DNA of 33,961 nt from a virus (lineage: Duplodnaviria; Heunggongvirae; Uroviricota; Caudoviricetes): the IMG/VR virus record IMGVR_UViG_2636415959_000001, positions 1 to 33,961 of that record; one strand, written 5' to 3'. The notes beneath the pieces are model-generated. The model was not told the origin of the DNA, searched no databases, and saw nothing but the letters and a program-made list of their open reading frames with translations. Position numbers and translations under genes: made by a program. How positions within the stretch are numbered: the stretch's first letter is position 1; each line of letters begins with the position of its first letter. Positions 2,074-33,961 of this stretch are shown one piece after another.

Positions 2074-2534
2074 CACTTCACCTCCACGCCGATCCCGGCA
2101 ATGACACAAGCTCGCTCTATAGCTTCTTTCACCCAGCGCTTATAGGTTTCCGGATGGAATACTTCGCTTTTCCCGGTACCGCTCCAGAACGCTTTTGACG
2201 TAATATCTGGCAGGGTGATGGTCAACGGTTTACCAGAAGTGACATCGCTAACCACTCTCTCCCAGCGGTCGCCAGTCTGCGATTCAAGACGCTGAATTAA
2301 CTCCCCAATACTTAAAGGGGCGATCAACTGCTGGCGTAAGCGCTGAATCTCCGCCGCCATGTAGTAACCGGTTTTGCTCCAGGTATCTACATCATCACCG
2401 GCCATATCCGGTTCCATCGTCGCCATCAGAACGGCGTCGTGATAGTCCTGGCTGCCATTGGTGATCGCGACAGCGTAGGTATCACTGTTTTCGCGCTTAT
2501 GGATAAGCACGACAGGGTTAGTGATTTTGCTCAT
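2073..2534 (-). CDS. Hypothetical early protein (153 aa)
   Basis: ORF in the same leftward operon; overlapping stop/start with neighbours. Confidence 0.55.
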   Translation of the reverse strand: MSKITNPVVLIHKRENSDTYAVAITNGSQDYHDAVLMATMEPDMAGDDVDTWSKTGYYMAAEIQRLRQQLIAPLSIGELIQRLESQTGDRWERVVSDVTSGKPLTITLPDITSKAFWSGTGKSEVFHPETYKRWVKEAIERACVIAGIGVEVK

Positions 2535-2743
2535 TCCGCTGTCTCCCGCTCAGCTTCGATGATGGCATCTACAGCCATCACCAGGGTTTTGGCGAGGTCG
2601 TCGTAATCCTGCCATGCATCATTGCTAAAAAAATTCGTGAGCATTACTGGCGCTATCTGCACAACGAGGTGCTGGCGATAGGTCATGCCACGGGGAGTAT
2701 CGATGCGCGGGCATGGGTAAGCTGAATGCTGGCCTTTGCTCAT
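2531..2743 (-). CDS. Hypothetical early protein (70 aa)
   Basis: Small ORF with 4-nt overlaps to both neighbours (operon packing). Confidence 0.45.
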   Translation of the reverse strand: MSKGQHSAYPCPRIDTPRGMTYRQHLVVQIAPVMLTNFFSNDAWQDYDDLAKTLVMAVDAIIEAERETAE

Positions 2744-2964
2744 CGTGTCGCCTCTCGTTGAATTGTCTTGTAGGCTCGCAACATATCGCGAGATTTTCCG
2801 GACAAAACCGTCTTCATGAAGAACATTCCACTACGGTTTGCAACTATTCCTGGTGTGCAGAGCAGCGTGGCGTCTACCACGCGGTTATGTTTACGGAACT
2901 CAAACACAGTGCTGGTGATCACGATGTTCGCTACGGCGCCATAGTCCTGATATTCGATTTTCAT
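2740..2964 (-). CDS. Hypothetical early protein (74 aa)
   Basis: Small ORF with 4-nt overlaps to both neighbours. Confidence 0.45.
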   Translation of the reverse strand: MKIEYQDYGAVANIVITSTVFEFRKHNRVVDATLLCTPGIVANRSGMFFMKTVLSGKSRDMLRAYKTIQREATR

Positions 2965-3527
2965 GCCAGATGCTCCTCAATAATTTTGAAAGCATCATCA
3001 CGGCATGGCATCACGACGAACTCAGGATTACCGTATGCAGTGTTGATCACTGGATCGAACTGAATGCGAACCGCTCCAGCCTCACCGGAAGGGCGTAACT
3101 GGATGGGAATAAACTTCCGCTCGCGACCAAACATCTTTTCCGGATAACTGAGGTATTCAGCCCGGATAACCGGATTGATACTGAAATCCACTTTTTTCGG
3201 GATGACGCGTTCCATATCAGGAAAGCGACCATCAACAAGTTTGATGCCGGTGATCGAAATCCGGCGTTCGAATGCGTCGCGGTGAATGGCAAACGCTTCT
3301 TTGTTAAATACCAGTTCAGTGGTTTCCGCTTTCGCCGGAACCGGCCCTTCAAACTGGACGATGATGTTTTTCTTCGTCCGGATGCCGTGCTCCATGCGCA
3401 GGGCTACATGCCCGTTAGTCGACTCGATATATTTCGGAGTGATGTGCACACCATTCAGGTAGTAACGGACATCATTTTTTGCTGCGCATACCAGAGCTGC
3501 GCGAATAAGTTTCGACTGGAGGATCAT
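2961..3527 (-). CDS. Truncated DNA polymerase III beta sliding clamp (DnaN)-like protein
   Basis: 188 aa; motifs ..NDVRYYLNGVHI.., ..KLVDGRFPDMERVIPKK.. and C-terminal ..FVVMPCR.. parallel E. coli DnaN segments (..HQDVRYYLNGMLF.., ..KLVDGRFPDYRRVLPKN.., ..YVVMPMRL) as I recall them; covers roughly clamp domain II and part of III only. Confidence 0.6.
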   Translation of the reverse strand: MILQSKLIRAALVCAAKNDVRYYLNGVHITPKYIESTNGHVALRMEHGIRTKKNIIVQFEGPVPAKAETTELVFNKEAFAIHRDAFERRISITGIKLVDGRFPDMERVIPKKVDFSINPVIRAEYLSYPEKMFGRERKFIPIQLRPSGEAGAVRIQFDPVINTAYGNPEFVVMPCRDDAFKIIEEHLA

Positions 3528-4360
3528 GCTTCCACCTCCACGAAGATCTCTTTCGGATCCTTACGCAGAACGAAGCCACCAAATTCAGGATGTTGCCAGC
3601 GCTTGCGTTTACCGCTTGGGCGAACGGATTCTTCCAGCAGCACCTGAAATGCGTGAATGAACGATTCATGATGTACGCACAGCCCACGAACTCCCGGCAA
3701 CTGTCTGGAGGGCAGGTTTGCGAACTGAACAAGACGACGGCACGAAGGATCGGACAGACTGGTTTCCCATGACACTTTGTGTACCGGAACGAATTCGGCA
3801 TCGGTATTCACGAATTCAGTCGAACTAATGCGCCGTTGTGGTAGAGAGGAAGATACAGGCGAAGCAGCAACCAGGTTGGCGCCACTCACTTCCATTACTG
3901 CTTTCATCGTCGCTGATGCGGTTGCTTCGGCCACAACGCGGGCCAGTGAAAGAATGTCATGGTTCATGCTGATTTCTTGCTGGTGTGATTTAGCTACTGG
4001 CACTTCTTTGCTGTATGTGCCTGTGGTCATGATGGCAGGGAGTACATCCTCACAAACCCAGTCCTGTACGCGTTCAGCCGATGGAAGCTGGCTTCGCAGG
4101 ATAAGGCGGAACAAGTCGGCCTGACCAGCCAGCTGAGTACCGCGCGGTTTTTCACCAAAACCCAATTCTAACGATTCGTTATAATCAAGTTTAATCAACG
4201 CCTTGCAGTGGTCTTTCAGCGCTTTTGCTGGGTTCGTATAACCGAGGGATTTAGCCAGTTCTACAGCGTCAAAGGCTGGTTTTCCCTCATAAAGAATTCC
4301 GCTCATAGAAAAATTGAGTTCTTCTGAGCTAAAGGCCATAAGTTGGTTTTTCATCATCAT
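3524..4360 (-). CDS. BRO-N (KilA-N/Bro N-terminal) domain protein, antirepressor-like
   Basis: 278 aa; N-terminal ..FDAVELAKSLGYTNPAKALKDHC..LFRLILRSQLPSAERVQDWVCEDVLPAI.. fits the BRO-N pattern; C-terminal half unrecognised. Confidence 0.65.
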   Translation of the reverse strand: MMMKNQLMAFSSEELNFSMSGILYEGKPAFDAVELAKSLGYTNPAKALKDHCKALIKLDYNESLELGFGEKPRGTQLAGQADLFRLILRSQLPSAERVQDWVCEDVLPAIMTTGTYSKEVPVAKSHQQEISMNHDILSLARVVAEATASATMKAVMEVSGANLVAASPVSSSLPQRRISSTEFVNTDAEFVPVHKVSWETSLSDPSCRRLVQFANLPSRQLPGVRGLCVHHESFIHAFQVLLEESVRPSGKRKRWQHPEFGGFVLRKDPKEIFVEVEA

Positions 4361-4365
4361 TTACC

Positions 4366-4869
4366 TCAGTGCAAAATGTGTTGAACGGGTATTGCTTCGC
4401 CGACACGTAACCGAACAGCAAGATCCATAAACATCTCGTCGAGAAAACCGCTGAACCACGAATGACCGTCTTCTTTCAGGCGCTGATCGTTGGCGGAGTA
4501 GAACTGGAAGACAGCCAGATATCGCTCCTGTGGTTTTTGCTCGATCAGTGCGCCTTCTACGTGTTCAATAAGCAGGTTCTCGATAAGCTGCCGCGTTAAG
4601 CCAAAAACAAACTTACCGGTTTTAAACTGATACTCACCGTCACGGAGGCCCCAGCGTTTTTCACATTCAATCAGGTAGGTAAGGGCGACTGTTCCGCGCA
4701 TGTGCTTACAGATGATTTCAGCCCACTCGTGCTGCTCGGCAGCAGTTAGCTCGTGGTCTCCACTGCGTTTTTCATCCATCATCCATGCAGGGAAATTCAT
4801 ACCAGTCCTTTCATGGATATCTTTCAGCCTGGCGACAAGCTGCTTGATGTTTTCGTTATTTCCTGCCAT
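4366..4869 (-). CDS. Hypothetical protein (167 aa)
   Basis: ORF with plausible start; no recognised motif. Confidence 0.5.
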   Translation of the reverse strand: MAGNNENIKQLVARLKDIHERTGMNFPAWMMDEKRSGDHELTAAEQHEWAEIICKHMRGTVALTYLIECEKRWGLRDGEYQFKTGKFVFGLTRQLIENLLIEHVEGALIEQKPQERYLAVFQFYSANDQRLKEDGHSWFSGFLDEMFMDLAVRLRVGEAIPVQHILH

Positions 4870-4964
4870 CAGTTAATTCCTCCGCTGCATGTTTCTTTTT
4901 CACGTAATCAACAACCTCGCTCAGAAGTTCGTCGATAATTAATTTTCCTGAATCCGTCAGGTAT

Positions 4965-5222
4965 TCAGGTGTGTTTATTAATTTCTATGGCATTTTGATA
5001 TGCGTTTTTGATAGTGGAGTCACCCTCATATCTGCTAAGCCCAACCCCAGTTAATCCTTCAAAACGTAATAAAAGCTGATTCATGAAGTGATCATTTACT
5101 TCTACGGTTTCAATTTTGTTATCTGGAAGTTTTATAATCAGTAGGTTTCCACCGGTATTACGCTTGAGTCGCGCTAATGCCGCATTAGCAATCCGGCGTC
5201 GATAGGTATCGATAATATTCAT
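4965..5222 (-). CDS. Hypothetical small protein (85 aa), AT-rich gene
   Basis: ORF in the AT-rich island next to the repressor; basic N-terminus (..YRRRIANAALARLKRN..). Confidence 0.5.
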   Translation of the reverse strand: MNIIDTYRRRIANAALARLKRNTGGNLLIIKLPDNKIETVEVNDHFMNQLLLRFEGLTGVGLSRYEGDSTIKNAYQNAIEINKHT

Positions 5223-5328
5223 AGTTAGTACCCATAAGCTTTCTTAAGATAAAGAAGAGCGATTGCTTCGTAACCGCAGGACGCATAAAGGCATGCTGTT
5301 CTGTATGCCGTTTTATCTTTGATGAAAG

Positions 5329-6253: not shown

Positions 6254-6946
6254 TCAGAAGATTGTTGATACCCAAAACAGCCTTCCTAAAACCTCAAGAC
6301 TATCCATGTCTACTTCTTCGTCAGGGTATTCATCAGAGTTATAGCTTCTGATTGTCACCTTGTCTGGCCCAGATCTGTAGAGGATTTTTAACCTTTTCCA
6401 TCCACCTTGGTTGATGCCGTAAATTTTACCATCAACGATACGCTTGTCATGGCAGTTTATAGCAACAGTAGAGCCATCAGCGATCACTGGCTCCATGCTA
6501 TTCCCGTGTGCAGCAAAGCATAGAACGCCATCACCATCACTATTAGCTCCCACCTTTCGCAATGTTGCTTTGGAAAACCTAAGTTTTTTGCCATTGTAAT
6601 CATCATTAAGAGCGCTGCCATCTCCACATGCGAACTCGATATCCTTCAAGTAAGGCACCTCTACCTCATCATCCTCAAGCGGCGTTTGCTTATCCCATGG
6701 ATCTATACCAAACATCCTTTGTTCTGGAGTTTTTGCGGGCCCCATGGTGCCTTCACCAGTGCTTAACCATATTGGATCTACATCCAACGCTTTGGCTATA
6801 TCCACGATTTTTCCGCTGGACTGGGCTTTTCCTGAGGTTAGTTTTTGTATGGCCCCCTGGCTTACCCCAACCCTATGCGCTAATTGACTTTGTGTAGCCC
6901 CGGCATGAGCCATCGCCAGCCTTAGTCTTTCTGCAAGTGTGTTCAT
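6254..6946 (-). CDS. cI: CI-like phage repressor (HTH + S24 peptidase)
   Basis: 230 aa; N-terminal HTH (..QSQLAHRVGVSQGAIQKLTSGK..); C-terminal autocleavage domain (GNSMEP, KRLK); divergent from the cro-like gene. Confidence 0.9.
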   Translation of the reverse strand: MNTLAERLRLAMAHAGATQSQLAHRVGVSQGAIQKLTSGKAQSSGKIVDIAKALDVDPIWLSTGEGTMGPAKTPEQRMFGIDPWDKQTPLEDDEVEVPYLKDIEFACGDGSALNDDYNGKKLRFSKATLRKVGANSDGDGVLCFAAHGNSMEPVIADGSTVAINCHDKRIVDGKIYGINQGGWKRLKILYRSGPDKVTIRSYNSDEYPDEEVDMDSLEVLGRLFWVSTIF

Positions 6947-7072
6947 CTAAGTATCTCCGATTTCTGTGCATATTTAATACCACAGGATTAACCATGGCAA
7001 GCGGATAATACTTGATTAATTATTCCTTTGGTATTATTTTATATCTTTAATATTAATACTAAGGGCTTTGTT
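6947..7072. promoter_or_regulatory. Immunity switch region (OR / PRM / PR-like) between cI and cro
   Basis: 126-bp AT-rich divergent intergenic region with repeated TAATAC / GTATTA half-sites (e.g. 6975-6980, 7007-7012, 7032-7036, 7054-7059). Confidence 0.5.
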
Positions 7073-7315
7073 ATGACTGATGAGGTTTTTGAATCCCCAA
7101 TGGCGAAAGCCGTGTACGTTGCTGGTGGGCAAAGTTCGCTTGCTAAAAAGGTTGGCGTTACGCAAGGAGCGGTCTGGAAGTGGGTCAGGGGGGTCAAGAA
7201 AGTTTCTCCTGTCCATGCAGTAGCAGTCTCAAACGCAGTTAATGGAGTTGTTAAGCCTCATGAACTGCGTCCTGATTTGCCGACTCTTTTCCCACACCCG
7301 GGCAATGAGGTGTGA
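7073..7315 (+). CDS. cro: Cro-like HTH regulator
   Basis: 80 aa from ATG 7073; HTH ..SSLAKKVGVTQGAVWKWVRG..; divergent from cI. Confidence 0.7.
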   Translation: MTDEVFESPMAKAVYVAGGQSSLAKKVGVTQGAVWKWVRGVKKVSPVHAVAVSNAVNGVVKPHELRPDLPTLFPHPGNEV

Positions 7316-7316
7316 T

Positions 7317-7514
7317 ATGTCGCACTCAATCACTACCGAAAACCAAATTAAGCCATTGGATATCGATTATCGCGATCCGCGCGGTGTGATTGTGCATGTC
7401 ACCGGCTGGAATCGGGATAAGCAGCAGGTGTATTTCACCAGGCAGAATTATCCGCATGAGTGCATGCAACCGGTCTGGAAGTTTCAACAGTATTTCAAGA
7501 GGTTAACATCATGA
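7317..7514 (+). CDS. Hypothetical protein (65 aa) between cro and the replication gene
   Basis: ORF starting MSHSITTENQ at 7317; occupies the cII-equivalent position but shows no obvious HTH. Confidence 0.4.
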   Translation: MSHSITTENQIKPLDIDYRDPRGVIVHVTGWNRDKQQVYFTRQNYPHECMQPVWKFQQYFKRLTS

Positions 7515-12573: not shown

Positions 12574-12949
12574 GCTGGTTATTTCTGCTTTCCTCCTGAC
12601 TTTATTCGGTTCTCTCGTCTGGTCAGCTAACCACTACCACAGCAAATACCAGCGCGAAAAGAAACGTGCTGATGAGGCTGTACAAAATGCCGAATCGGCA
12701 ACCGCTATTACCAATAACGTCCTGCAATCACTGCAAATCGTCAATACAGTTCTGGAGGCTAACCAGCATGCAAAACAGCAGATCACACTGGAGTCACAGA
12801 GAACCCAGGAAGATATCAAAGTGGCTGTTGCGGATGATGATTGTGCTTCACGTCCTGTGCCTGCTGCCGCTGCTGACCGGTTGCGGAAGTACGCGAACAG
12901 TTTACGTGCCTATTCCGGCGGTACCGTTGCCAGCAAGCCTGACTACTGA
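12557..12949 (+). CDS. Rz: Spanin inner-membrane subunit (Rz-like i-spanin)
   Basis: 130 aa from ATG 12557; N-terminal TM helix (ISAFLLTLFGSLVW), coiled-coil-like remainder; position after endolysin. Confidence 0.7.
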   Translation: MKLRYKLVISAFLLTLFGSLVWSANHYHSKYQREKKRADEAVQNAESATAITNNVLQSLQIVNTVLEANQHAKQQITLESQRTQEDIKVAVADDDCASRPVPAAAADRLRKYANSLRAYSGGTVASKPDY

Positions 12950-30446: not shown

Positions 30447-31021
30447 CAAACGATGATTACATCCGTCTGTTGTCGGCACTGCTGCCGCCCGGTCCGGCGT
30501 GGTCAGCCAGAGATCCGGCGATTGCCGGTACGGCACCGTCATTAACCCGTGTTCATCAGCGTGCGGATGCCCTGATGCGGGAGCTGGATCCGCGCACCAC
30601 CACCGAACTGATAAACCGCTGGGAGCGTCTGTGCGGCCTGCCGGATGAATGTATTCCTACAGGGACACAGACCCTTCGCCAGCGCCAGCAACGGCTGGAT
30701 GCGAAGGTTAACCTGTCGGGTGGCATCAACGAGGATTTTTATCTTGCACAGCTTGCTGCCCTGGGCAGACCAGATGCCACCATCACGCGATACGACAAAA
30801 GCACGTTCACCTGCTCATCGGCCTGTACTGACGCGGTGAATGCGCCGGAATGGCGGTATTACTGGCAGGTCAACATGCCAGCCGCCACCAACACCACCTG
30901 GATGACATGTGGCGATCCCTGTGATTCCGCACTGCGTATCTGGGGCGACACCGTTGTCGAGTGTGTGCTTAACAAACTCTGCCCGTCGCATACCTACGTA
31001 ATTTTTAAATATCCGGAGTAA
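30437..31021 (+). CDS. Tail protein (Mu gp48-like)
   Basis: 194 aa; position before the tail fibre gene. Confidence 0.6.
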
Positions 31022-31024
31022 TCC

Positions 31025-31825
31025 ATGCATCGTATAGACACGAAAACCGCGCAGAAGGATAAGTTCGGCGCGGGTAAGAACGGTTTTACCCGTGGTAATC
31101 CCCAGACTGGTACGCCTGCCACCGATCTGGATGATGACTACTTTGACATGTTGCAGGAGGAGCTTTGCAGCGTTGTGGAGGCATCCGGTGCCAGCCTGGA
31201 GAAGGGGCGGCATGACCAGTTGCTTACCGCACTTCGCGCACTGCTGTTAAGCCGCAATAATCCGTTTGGTGATATCAAATCGGACGGCACTGTGCAAACG
31301 GCTCTCGAAAACCTTGGTTTGGGAGAAGGTTCAGCATTACCGGTTGGTGTGCCTGTTCCGTGGCCTTCAGCTACACCACCGACAGGCTGGTTGAAATGCA
31401 ATGGTGCAGCTTTTTCTGCTGAAGAATACCCGGAACTGGCAAAGGCTTACCCGACAAATAAATTGCCTGATTTACGCGGTGAGTTTATTCGTGGCTGGGA
31501 TGATGGACGCGGTGTGGATACGGGGAGGGCAATATTATCATCTCAGGGCGATGCCATACGTAATATCTATGGTGAGTTCAAGACTGTAAACGCCGAAAAT
31601 TATTCAATATGGGAATCAGTAGACTCTTTTAAGGGGGCAGTGGTGCCTTTGAACCCCTCAACGGACAATAGTTATTTCTCCATAATCAATAGTATGTTGA
31701 CACAAAGAACAGATGGCTCTGTTTACCCAACAGTGATTGGCCTTGATGCTTCAAGAATTGTTCCAACTGCAAACGAAAACCGTCCACGAAATATTGCATT
31801 TAACTTTATCGTGAGGGCTGCATAA
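31025..31825 (+). CDS. Tail fibre protein with tail-collar domain
   Basis: 266 aa; ..[49 protein letters not shown].. fits the phage tail-collar motif; C-terminal part AT-rich. Confidence 0.75.
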
Positions 31826-32427
31826 TGGATAACGCTGTATTAAATAGCGAGCTTATTGCCACGAAGGCGGGGAATATTACCGTCTATAGCTATGATGGTG
31901 AAACTCGGGAATATATTTCCACTTCAAATGAATATCTTGCCGTTGGCGTCGGTATCCCGGCATGTTCTTGTTTAGATGCACCAGTTACACATAAAGCTGG
32001 TTATGCAATCTGCCGTTCTGCAGATTTTAACTCATGGGAATATGTGCCAGACCATCGCGGTGAAATCATCTATAGCACCGAAACAGGAGAATCGAAAGAA
32101 ATCACAGCTCTGGGTGATTACCCTGAAAATACAACCACTATCGCCCCGTTAATGCCATATGATAAATGGGATGGTGAGAAATGGGTGACAGATACTGAGG
32201 CACAGCATAGTGCCGCAGTAGACGCGGCAGAAGCACAGCGCCAGTCACTGATTGATGCAGCAATGGCTTCCATTAGTCTGATTCAGCTGAAATTACAGGC
32301 CGGACGTAAACTGACGCAGGCAGAAACAACCAGACTTAACGCCGTGCTGGATTACATTGACGCGGTGACGGCAACAGATACCAGCACCGCGCCGGATGTC
32401 ATCTGGCCTGAACTGCCGGAGGCGTAG
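31825..32427 (+). CDS. Tail fibre assembly protein (Tfa)
   Basis: 200 aa directly after the tail fibre (ATGA overlap); typical Tfa composition. Confidence 0.7.
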   Translation: MDNAVLNSELIATKAGNITVYSYDGETREYISTSNEYLAVGVGIPACSCLDAPVTHKAGYAICRSADFNSWEYVPDHRGEIIYSTETGESKEITALGDYPENTTTIAPLMPYDKWDGEKWVTDTEAQHSAAVDAAEAQRQSLIDAAMASISLIQLKLQAGRKLTQAETTRLNAVLDYIDAVTATDTSTAPDVIWPELPEA

Positions 32428-32818
32428 GCCATTCAATATCGAGTGCTGTTGAAGTATTAATACGCATCAATAGCACTCGATATTCTTTCCATGCCAGTAA
32501 CAGTTTCGTTTCATCATCTGTTGCCATACCTAAATCAACCGCATCCTGAAGCGGAGCTATTACATTCGTTGCCTCTGCTATCAGTGCAGATTTCTTTTCA
32601 TCATTTATTAAGGCTAATTGTTCTGGTGTTGGAGAAGGACGGTCAACAATGACAGGATGACCGTTCTCACCACAGGTAATCATTTTTGTTACACTCTGTG
32701 CATTAATCAGTGTTTTCCACTCTGATTCCGAGATTTCCACTGCATCATCAGGAATATTGGTGCCGTGAAATTCAGTCGAATAAAATCCGTTTGTCGATGC
32801 AGAATAAAAATATGACAT
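32399..32818 (-). CDS. Tail fibre assembly protein, second copy in inverted orientation
   Basis: 139 aa from ATG 32818 (MSYFYSASTNGFYSTEF.., a typical Tfa N-terminus); convergent with the plus-strand Tfa. Confidence 0.65.
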   Translation of the reverse strand: MSYFYSASTNGFYSTEFHGTNIPDDAVEISESEWKTLINAQSVTKMITCGENGHPVIVDRPSPTPEQLALINDEKKSALIAEATNVIAPLQDAVDLGMATDDETKLLLAWKEYRVLLMRINTSTALDIEWPTPPAVQAR

Positions 32819-32822
32819 TTCG

Positions 32823-33221
32823 TTAATATCCCATTGCAATGTAATACGCATCAGCAGATGAACCATATCCTGAACCGGGCGACACTGTAATATTAAATCC
32901 AGTGTTCTGGACATTTGTCGCCGATACAGTCGGCTGCCCTGACGCGCCAGTAACGTTCAATGTAACTGTGACAGCAAGGACTCTTGAGAATGTCATCGGG
33001 AACCTTATCTCGTATGTTGAAGAAACATTCGGGGAGCCATTCAACTGACCGCACTGTAAAATTAAACCAGACGGAAATTTTTGCGCAGCAGCCGTTGCGG
33101 TATTACTTGACGCGAACAGGCTCATATCAGGTATCTGATTCGCCCCTGTACCTACATTCCTTTTAGCTGCTTCTCCCAAACCAACGTTTACGAAAATAAA
33201 AATCCGCCACAGCGTAATCAA
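32823..33221 (-). other. Inverted tail-fibre C-terminal (receptor-binding-like) coding segment lacking its own N-terminal part
   Basis: Minus-strand ORF ending 4 nt before the inverted Tfa; track start is a non-ATG codon inside the dinI terminator; first in-frame ATG at 33125 has no clear RBS. Confidence 0.45.
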
Positions 33222-33240
33222 AACGTAACAGTGGCGGATA
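33191..33240 (-). terminator. Intrinsic terminator downstream of the dinI-like gene
   Basis: ATCCGCCAC / GTGGCGGAT stem (33202-33210 / 33231-33239), large loop, followed on the minus strand by TTTTTATTTT. Confidence 0.5.
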
Positions 33241-33250
33241 TTGAAAAACT

Positions 33251-33493
33251 TTACTCACTCACTAACCAAAATTCAGCCTCTTCAAACATTTCCTGGACTA
33301 CTGCACTGATCCGTTCCTTCTCGTGCTTGCTGGCGTCAGTGTTGATCGCCGGTAGTGTCATCATCGGTTTAACCCGAACATCAGCGTCAGGGAAAATCCG
33401 GTGAACCCTCTTGGTCAATTCGCCCAGAATGATATCTTTTGCACCGGGAAGACCATCAAAATTCCTTTTGTCATAAACGAGTTCCACGAACAT
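33251..33493 (-). CDS. dinI: DinI-family protein
   Basis: 80 aa; ..FPDADVRV.. and acidic C-terminus ..EEAEFWLVSE parallel E. coli DinI (..DDWFVSE) as recalled; LexA box in its promoter. Confidence 0.8.
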   Translation of the reverse strand: MFVELVYDKRNFDGLPGAKDIILGELTKRVHRIFPDADVRVKPMMTLPAINTDASKHEKERISAVVQEMFEEAEFWLVSE

Positions 33494-33508
33494 TGCTCAT
33501 TGCCTCTT

Positions 33509-33528
33509 TGCTGGATGGATATACAGTA
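33509..33528. promoter_or_regulatory. LexA (SOS) box in the divergent dinI-like / umuD'-like promoter region
   Basis: Minus-strand reading TACTGTATATCCATCCAGCA (CTGT-N8-CCAG), very close to the E. coli dinI box as I recall it; lies between -35 TTGCTG and -10 TATACT (plus strand) and directly downstream of -10 TATAAA (minus strand). Confidence 0.6.
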
Positions 33529-33571
33529 TTTATACTGTGTTTTTATCCGGTATTCAAGAGAGGGCGTAAAC

Positions 33572-33961
33572 ATGGGCTTTCCTTCACCTGCTGCAGATTA
33601 TGTTGAAACACGAATCTCCCTCGATCAGCAGTTAATCAGCCAGCCCGCAGCGACTTATTTCATGCGTGCATCGCGTTCACATTTCAGGGAAGGGATAATT
33701 CAGGGGGCGCTGCTTGTTGTTGATGCCTCACTTTCAGCCTGTGATGGCTCGCTGCTGATCTGCGCGATAGACGGAGAATTTAGGATCAAGCGATATCGGA
33801 CACATCCTCAACCCCACCTCGTTAATCTGGAGAACGGGAGAAAGGAGGCGCTGCCAGTAGATGATGGCGGTTACAGTTCTGCACCCGCTGTATTTGGGGT
33901 GCTTACTTACATCATCAATGACGCCAGGAATGCAGAGTTTGATGATTGCCCGGTGATGTGA
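33572..33961 (+). CDS. UmuD'-like protein (S24-family fold, N-terminally pre-truncated, catalytic Ser not conserved)
   Basis: 129 aa from ATG 33572 (RBS GAGAGGG); starts MGFPSPAADYVE.., aligning to E. coli UmuD from Gly25 (..CGFPSPAADYVEQ..); GDSM position reads RSHF; Lys of ..EFRIKR.. retained; stop is the last codon of the window. Confidence 0.75.
   Translation: MGFPSPAADYVETRISLDQQLISQPAATYFMRASRSHFREGIIQGALLVVDASLSACDGSLLICAIDGEFRIKRYRTHPQPHLVNLENGRKEALPVDDGGYSSAPAVFGVLTYIINDARNAEFDDCPVM

Follow-up and report, generated by a model that had tools for sequence, protein, structure and literature searches.

In the G segment of phage Mu (Gin) and the C segment of phage P1 (Cin), a constant N-terminal part of the tail fibre is joined to one of two alternative C-termini, each with its own chaperone, and the two are exchanged through inversion of the segment by a serine invertase. 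Swapping of fibre tips by such a switch leads to a change of host range. In this family the crossover sites are imperfect palindromes of 26 bp in inverted orientation, and the gene of the serine invertase, a protein of about 180-195 aa with Resolvase and HTH_7 domains, lies beside one of them. The Gin and Cin genes carry a Fis-dependent enhancer in their 5' end. A similar arrangement is found for Hin, where the Fis-dependent enhancer lies within the 5' coding region of the invertase gene, about 100 bp from hix (PMC3798978). The characterised system closest to the locus described here is the P region of the cryptic E. coli K-12 prophage e14 (stfP-tfaP / tfaE-stfE, with PinE as invertase), for which the published P-segment repeats are TTGGTTTGGGAGAAGG and CCTTCTCCCAAACCAA (PMC12529663). 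In e14 the P segment is locked in a pinE deletion strain despite the presence of pinQ, and PinQ has also been found to invert this segment in trans, across prophages (PMC12529663). Earlier work has also described invertible regions that have no recombinase in their vicinity (PMC9881135).

The DNA analysed here is a stretch of 33,961 nucleotides, which we call the window. It extends from an integrase gene (1-1314) to a DinI-like gene and an S24/UmuD-like peptidase gene, and looks like an otherwise complete prophage of the SfII/SfV type integrated at yecD, a locus also occupied by a lambdoid prophage in E. coli Nissle 1917. Over 11.5 kb, the window's head and tail genes share 97-98% identity with their counterparts in the Shigella phages SfII and SfI, and baseplate genes of the Mu gp45-48 type, with matches to Phage_Mu_Gp48 and related Pfam families, are found upstream of the fibre. 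Positions 31302-33196 are a Din-family (Pin/Gin/Cin-type) host-range cassette, orthologous to the e14 P region. The features of the cassette and its surroundings are the following.

31025-31825, plus strand: expressed short tail fibre, 266 aa (ORF; Pfam Collar, E = 1.9e-15)
31302-31327, no strand: left crossover site, CTCTCGAAAACC-TT-GGTTTGGGAGAA, with core TT at 31314-31315 (inverted-repeat and Din-pattern scans)
31314-33184, no strand: invertible segment spanning the two cores (1,869 bp counted from one core position to its equivalent)
31825-32427, plus strand: Tfa1, the TfaE orthologue and chaperone for the expressed tip, 200 aa (Caudo_TAP, E = 6e-32)
32399-32818, minus strand: Tfa2, chaperone for the silent tip, 139 aa (Pfam Caudo_TAP, E = 4e-31)
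32823-33183, minus strand: silent alternative fibre tip (gp53-like / H-type-lectin-like), 119 codons (Gp53-like_C, E = 3e-15)
33171-33196, no strand: right crossover site, TTCTCCCAAACC-AA-CGTTTACGAAAA, with core AA at 33183-33184 (inverted-repeat and Din-pattern scans)
33198-33272, no strand: spacer of 75 bp at the position of the invertase gene in relatives (alignment to Ecol_545, L009)
33251-33493, minus strand: DinI-like gene directly after the cassette (Pfam DinI, E = 1.7e-18)
33572-33961, plus strand: S24 (UmuD-like) peptidase, the last gene of the window (Peptidase_S24, E = 1.6e-8)

The two pairs of tip and chaperone are convergent, with Collar and Caudo_TAP domains on the plus strand and Gp53-like_C and Caudo_TAP domains on the minus strand. 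An earlier reading, made from the letters of the window alone (the sequence-only reading), had proposed an expressed fibre and its Tfa on the plus strand upstream of a convergent inverted pair, and a second Tfa at 32399-32818; both proposals are borne out by the domain matches. In the expressed fibre the constant N-terminus comprises residues 1-97 (up to 31315) and is joined to a Collar-domain tip of the StfE type. Residues 1-105 are 97% identical to e14 StfP and the tip is 59% identical to StfE, while Tfa1 has 93% identity to e14 TfaE.

For the minus strand, the same reading had described a fibre segment at 32823-33221. The description of a C-terminal tip lacking its N-terminal part and start signals was correct; the limit at 33221 was not, since the segment really ends at the core dinucleotide, 33183-33184. 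Position 33221 is the mechanical start of the ORF and corresponds to a TTG within a hairpin loop, which leaves the segment without start signals; it also contains no ATG. The silent tip has an additional weak match to H-type lectin, an intact reading frame and 95% identity to the expressed tip of SfIV gp20. Tfa2 is 98% identical to the SfIV chaperone, with zero stops, and only 34% identical to e14 TfaP; an in-frame ATG at 32914 gives a longer form of 171 aa, which is the version given by gene callers. Neither the silent tip nor Tfa2 carries a lesion in its ORF. The estimated dN/dS values of the silent genes (0.15-0.49) are based on just 4-18 substitutions per comparison and are therefore uninformative on relaxed selection; together with the intact ORFs they fit continued use and recent loss equally well.

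The two crossover sites form the best inverted repeat of the region. The sequence-only reading had proposed a search for inverted repeats around the cassette, and this search returned a 24-nt, 92%-complementary repeat at 31302-31327 and 33171-33196. The crossover regions that it had itself put forward, 31510-31540 and 33130-33160, are linked by no repeat and were misplaced by about 200 and 30 bp, respectively. The left site (full sequence CTCTCGAAAACCTTGGTTTGGGAGAA) falls in codons 93-101 of the fibre gene, and the right site reads TTCTCCCAAACCAACGTTTACGAAAA in full. When scanned with a 26-bp pattern of the Gin/Pin/Cin/Hin type, the whole 34-kb window gave these two sites as the sole matches, with 1 and 0 mismatches, where 0.01 matches are expected by chance. 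The central dinucleotides, TT (left) and AA (right) on the plus strand, are identical in inverted orientation. Compared with the e14 sites, the left site is identical at 26/26 and the right site at 25/26 positions, and of the published e14 repeats the left copy (TTGGTTTGGGAGAAGG) is matched exactly by the inner half-site and the right copy at 15/16 positions (PMC12529663). Since homology to e14 stops only about 7 bp beyond the right site, this site is complete. It is also 26/26 identical to the site that has recombined between two related records (L027 and L025, see below), which makes it a competent substrate.

Strand exchange simulated at TT 31314-31315 and AA 33183-33184 preserved the reading frame. 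The simulated flipped product is a fibre of 216 aa, composed of the 97-residue constant N-terminus and the gp53-like tip, and it is identical to SfIV gp20 at 209/217 positions (96%) and to SfII gp23 at 205/217. The silent half thus represents the tip used by infectious relatives. As to the boundaries of the segment, matches in other phages begin and end at the crossover sites, and those in HK97, P2-like and Klebsiella phages start at the left site. In the mechanism that we propose, the constant N-terminus, ending at the left site, would read into the Collar-domain (StfE-type) tip and then into the chaperone TfaE, and the gp53-like tip and its chaperone would be silent because they have neither promoter nor start codon. 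A serine invertase acting on both sites would cleave the DNA at the TT/AA cores and turn the segment around, which would place the constant part in frame with the gp53-like tip, giving the 216-aa fibre of SfI, SfII and SfIV.

DNA identity to e14 is 96% across jayE, ymfQ and the stretch of stfP that encodes the constant part, as far as the left site. Also shared is the convergent layout of two tips and two chaperones, the segment being 1,797 bp in e14 and 1,869 bp here. There are also clear differences. In e14, pinE lies about 55 bp past the right site, whereas dinI is found at that place in the window; the second tip and chaperone of the window are another allele (gp53-like; Tfa2); e14 is a decayed remnant, while the prophage in the window looks complete; and, compared with the MG1655 reference, the window has the opposite orientation and expresses the StfE-type tip. 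The logic of the Mu G and P1 C segments is the same, with 26-bp sites of the same consensus in the window. However, those segments are about 3-4.2 kb long and code for far longer fibres, compared with 1.9 kb and fibres of 216 and 266 aa here, and their adjacent invertase genes contain an internal Fis enhancer, whereas the window has no invertase. The suggestion of a layout of the Mu G, P1 C or e14 P type was therefore well founded, as the inverted 26-bp sites, their matching cores, the in-frame fusion and the convergent pairs all demonstrate. We find that the cassette is best filed as a degenerate, invertase-less member of the Din-family host-range cassettes; it is a system of an ordinary and already known kind and holds no surprise for the specialist.

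Tail-fibre regions are mosaic, and the same cassette halves are found in P2-like, lambdoid and Mu-tail prophages. One half has also undergone real decay in SfII and SfIV, through a deletion and an IS insertion, respectively. This could suggest that the minus-strand pair is nothing but debris of a second fibre operon, brought in by illegitimate or homologous recombination between prophages, and that no switch is involved. We regard such an origin as very improbable, since the fragment starts exactly at a consensus site whose inverted counterpart lies within the expressed gene, the simulated inversion keeps the reading frame, e14 shows the same arrangement, sites included, and clean inversions between such sites are documented in relatives. 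In annotation, the minus-strand genes should accordingly be described as the silent half of an e14-type host-range switch, neither junk nor a second operon, and the pseudogene labels with a "missing N-terminus" that pipelines assign to such fragments are misleading.

A serine invertase is absent from the window and from the 7.9 kb beyond it, as judged by tblastn with four invertase types taken from relatives (the F404 type, the ABWA45 type, PinE of Ecol_545 and the yciI-locus type); the window yields only chance matches with E > 1, in agreement with the absence stated in the sequence-only reading. The further idea that a serine invertase might be located past the edge of the window did not hold. 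The window's own contig (GCA_000768425.1, JPKI01000002.1), identified by exact-protein look-up and identical to the window at 12,937/12,937 nt of the overlap, continues past the S24 gene with ynaM, an intact yecD, aspS, nudB, yebC and ruvCAB, which is host chromosome. The invertase is absent all the way from the integrase through the host genes past attR. A 182-aa gene with Resolvase and HTH_7 domains, situated about 1 kb downstream of an identical S24 peptidase in eight contigs, was considered as a candidate for the missing invertase and rejected: it sits at a different locus, beside yciI, and the contig of the window, at yecD, has no such gene.

In relatives, namely e14 (pinE), F404, ABWA45 and Ecol_545, a recombinase gene lies directly past the right site. 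In E. coli F404, whose prophage is of the same type, the recombinase at this position is intact (187 aa), and the gene order in ABWA45 and Ecol_545 is site, recombinase, dinI, S24. Positions 33170-33197 and 33273-33564 of the window align to 3692-3719 and 4475-4765 of Ecol_545 (L009), and the gap from site to dinI is 755 bp with pinE in Ecol_545 and 75 bp in the window. No remnant of any invertase 5' end is present at the DNA level in the window, and the usual location of the enhancer is consequently gone. Probes from the 5' end of pinE gave a 17-nt match at 32902-32918 (E = 0.18), which we ascribe to chance. By analogy with the systems described above, the second defining feature of such a switch, an enhancer in cis, is probably missing too, with the position of pinE reduced to 75 bp and the enhancer inside the invertase 5' end presumably lost along with the gene; Fis sites are, on the other hand, too degenerate for sequence alone to exclude an enhancer elsewhere near the cassette.

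Within the spacer, a hairpin at 33199-33242, with a fold of -18.9 kcal/mol, precedes a run of T on the minus strand. This structure is probably the terminator of dinI, a cautious assignment because the fold only marginally beats those of shuffled sequences (z = -1.9). A scan for consensus terminators did not flag the hairpin at 33199-33242, since its 20-nt loop is above the limit of the scan. The region has some bearing on the question of whether the so-called silent tip might be expressed alone, for instance by read-through from the SOS-inducible dinI, to give a free receptor-binding domain that masks the receptor, as proposed for StfE2 of e14. The gene dinI and the silent tip are indeed co-oriented, with about 70 bp between them, and the chimeric StfE2 of e14 is reported to block T2 adsorption (PMC12529663). 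However, the hairpin and T-run separate dinI from the fragment, the sole in-frame start is the TTG in the hairpin loop, an ATG being absent, and a promoter-like site was not found on the minus strand of 33184-33250. An independent role of this kind therefore seems extremely unlikely.

The orientation of the segment in relatives was used as a proxy for switching. Among genomes with an adjacent recombinase, the gp53-like half lies beside the recombinase in F404 and ABWA45 and the Collar-type half in Ecol_545, fEC.1 and CDF6. The clonal hospital isolates EC15 and EC12 carry, in a P2-like prophage, a segment that is 97% identical to that of the window and lies in opposite orientations in the two strains, with the flanking half-sites unmoved. 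The recombinase adjoining this segment is truncated to 67 codons, and the EC15 pseudogene retains the 5' 201 bp, the expected position of the enhancer. In the pair L027 and L025 the flanks are 99.8-100% identical, the interior is inverted and the right site abuts dinI; here an F404-type recombinase and a third site are found in cis, 1.7 kb off, past dinI, S24, ynaM and a yecD fragment. Both orientations thus occur among relatives only where a recombinase gene is present in cis, next to the segment or at a distance of 1.7 kb. Without a recombinase in cis, all records (23/23) have the orientation of the window. These are 21 complete genomes (19 Nissle 1917 derivatives, 027_SK3 and ABW_S38), L023 and the window itself, and they represent only about five independent lineages. 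When flipped junctions of the two types (window and Nissle) were simulated and compared with 5,426 complete E. coli genomes, none was matched without interruption. Exact-site scans for this census gave one match in IMG/VR and none in the JGI metagenomes, and an exact look-up of Tfa2 returned P2-like contexts only, all in the same orientation.

Since the gene for the flipping enzyme is missing, the switch is probably stuck in one position. We consider it likely that it is structurally intact yet functionally locked in the state that expresses the Collar-type tip, the silent half being a recent, undecayed relic. We also infer that this relic may persist as material that can be mobilised through recombination with other prophages. 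The proposal of an invertible cassette in the sequence-only reading is hence valid for the structure and for the occurrence of both orientations in relatives, while switching in this genome itself probably does not take place.

Several observations count against a lock: both silent ORFs are intact, both sites are undamaged, Pin-type invertases are able to act in trans (PinQ), and the EC12/EC15 inversion is found beside a truncated recombinase. It is conceivable that the cassette still works, being flipped in trans by a Din-family invertase elsewhere in the genome, such as PinE of e14, PinQ/PinR of Qin/Rac or an F404-type enzyme, in which case no enhancer would be needed, or an unrecognised Fis-binding element close by would take its place. 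The intact sites almost match those of e14, recombination at the identical right site separates L027 from L025, PinQ works across prophages (PMC12529663), and the silent genes show no lesion, all of which is compatible with flipping in trans. Nevertheless, 0/23 records without a cis recombinase are flipped, whereas flipped forms are easily found with one. Deletion of pinE locks the e14 segment with pinQ still there (PMC12529663), and while the EC12/EC15 inversion adjoins a truncated invertase, the EC15 pseudogene keeps its 5' 201 bp, the stretch expected to hold the enhancer, of which the window keeps none. We therefore hold occasional flipping in trans to be possible, although rather unlikely for this prophage.

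A locked switch can be compared with the states of the cassette in other phages. SfI, SfII and SfIV are of the same phage type as the window, and their fibre is its predicted flipped product (94-96% identical); they differ in being fixed in the other orientation, with neither right site nor invertase, whereas the window keeps both halves and the sites. The second half is deleted in SfII and truncated by an IS in SfIV, and in L026, of an invertase-less lineage, the crossover sites are already degenerate. The window in this way represents a clean intermediate stage of decay, with tips, chaperones and sites intact and the invertase alone gone, in a series that leads from working switches (e14, F404) through the stage of the window to fixed and eroded ones (SfII, SfIV). 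Should the phage prove inducible, we would expect it to infect only hosts bearing the receptor recognised by the Collar-type tip, a restriction that could be lifted experimentally with a supplied invertase and enhancer.

The Nissle 1917 lambdoid prophage resembles the window in the identical right site and the junction that follows it, with dinI, S24, ynaM and yecD (91% identity), and it is likewise invertase-less, in the same orientation and at the same locus, yecD. It differs in its lambdoid (siphovirus) tail genes, as opposed to the Mu-type baseplate genes of the window, and its tips and chaperones are other alleles, with 33-62% identity. Similarity to F404 extends to 33189, within the right site (93.9% over 30900-33189 and 97.3% over the last 890 bp), and the right arm of the window is 99.9% identical to L013 from 33178 and 91% identical to Nissle from 33123. 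Because the F404-like and the L013/Nissle-like homologies meet there, the SfV-type body and the dinI-S24 right arm are joined within the crossover site. Protein-identical cassette halves are also present in P2-like prophages. Such joints may have arisen either by site-specific recombination or by homologous exchange between conserved flanks.

It is tempting to speculate that the invertase-less junction is not the result of a simple deletion but a mobile arrangement, made and spread by the crossover sites themselves, although we find this doubtful. If true, Din sites would serve as joints between prophages that shuffle fibre tips, SOS-related cargo would be inserted or removed between cassette and invertase, and the cassette of the window could still switch in any cell that contains such a recombinase. 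In strains with the arrangement at the yciI locus, a block of dinI, S24, ynaM and yecD' lies between two directly repeated crossover sites, with the recombinase past the second one, and the point at which homology between unrelated prophages (P2-like, lambdoid and Mu-tail) is lost lies no more than a few bases from the site cores.

A tyrosine integrase gene stands at the start of the window and a CI-type repressor gene is also present, which indicates that the window spans essentially the whole prophage. The features of the window that concern us here are:

1-1314, tyrosine integrase (Arm-DNA-bind_2 and Phage_integrase), first gene
6254-6946, CI-type repressor (HTH_3 and Peptidase_S24)
31303-31314 and 33178-33197, homology break points against many phages
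32435-32484, inverted repeat of 18 nt, 94% complementary, 14-nt loop
33572-33961, S24/UmuD-like peptidase, 129 aa

Homology to P2-like, HK97-like, Klebsiella and SfV-type phages begins or ends no more than a few bases from the cores of the two crossover sites of the tail-fibre cassette, and the sites therefore fall at boundaries of mosaic modules. In L026, another lineage without an invertase, both crossover sites (4798-4823 and 6614-6639) are degraded, with three mismatches each that include the core-proximal AAACC motif, which is consistent with decay following invertase loss. The clonal E. coli isolates EC15 (L002, 5864-6144) and EC12 (L003) differ in that the cassette of their P2-like prophage is inverted between them, and the adjoining recombinase gene is in both a stump of 67 codons. 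This suggests that inversion can take place in trans as long as the gene keeps its 5' end, the presumed enhancer.

A different arrangement is found at the yciI locus of other E. coli strains (L025, L027 and L029; region 2462-4823 in locus coordinates), where dinI, the S24 peptidase gene and ynaM are followed by a fragment of yecD, past which lie a third crossover site (3070-3095) and a 182-aa recombinase of the type found in strain F404. This third site has the same sequence as the right site of F404 and is a direct repeat of the right site abutting dinI, so that the block from dinI to the yecD fragment is bracketed by two sites. Loss of the DNA between them would restore the canonical order of cassette, site and invertase.

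At least four tail types unrelated to one another, namely those of a tailspike/GDSL-lipase phage, two lambdoid types and a Mu-type, are followed by the same S24/UmuD-like peptidase at 100% identity (window and L010-L017), which looks like a common prophage-end module or a recombination hotspot beside the attachment site.

Within the cassette, the inverted repeat lies just past the Tfa1 stop codon, within the 3'-terminal part of the convergent Tfa2 gene, and may act as a transcriptional stop separating the two halves.

IS elements sit in or next to the fibre cassette in two relatives:

L023, another yecD prophage, 6472-7452, IS element in the fibre gene
L006, SfIV, 4090-5236, IS element in place of the silent Collar tip
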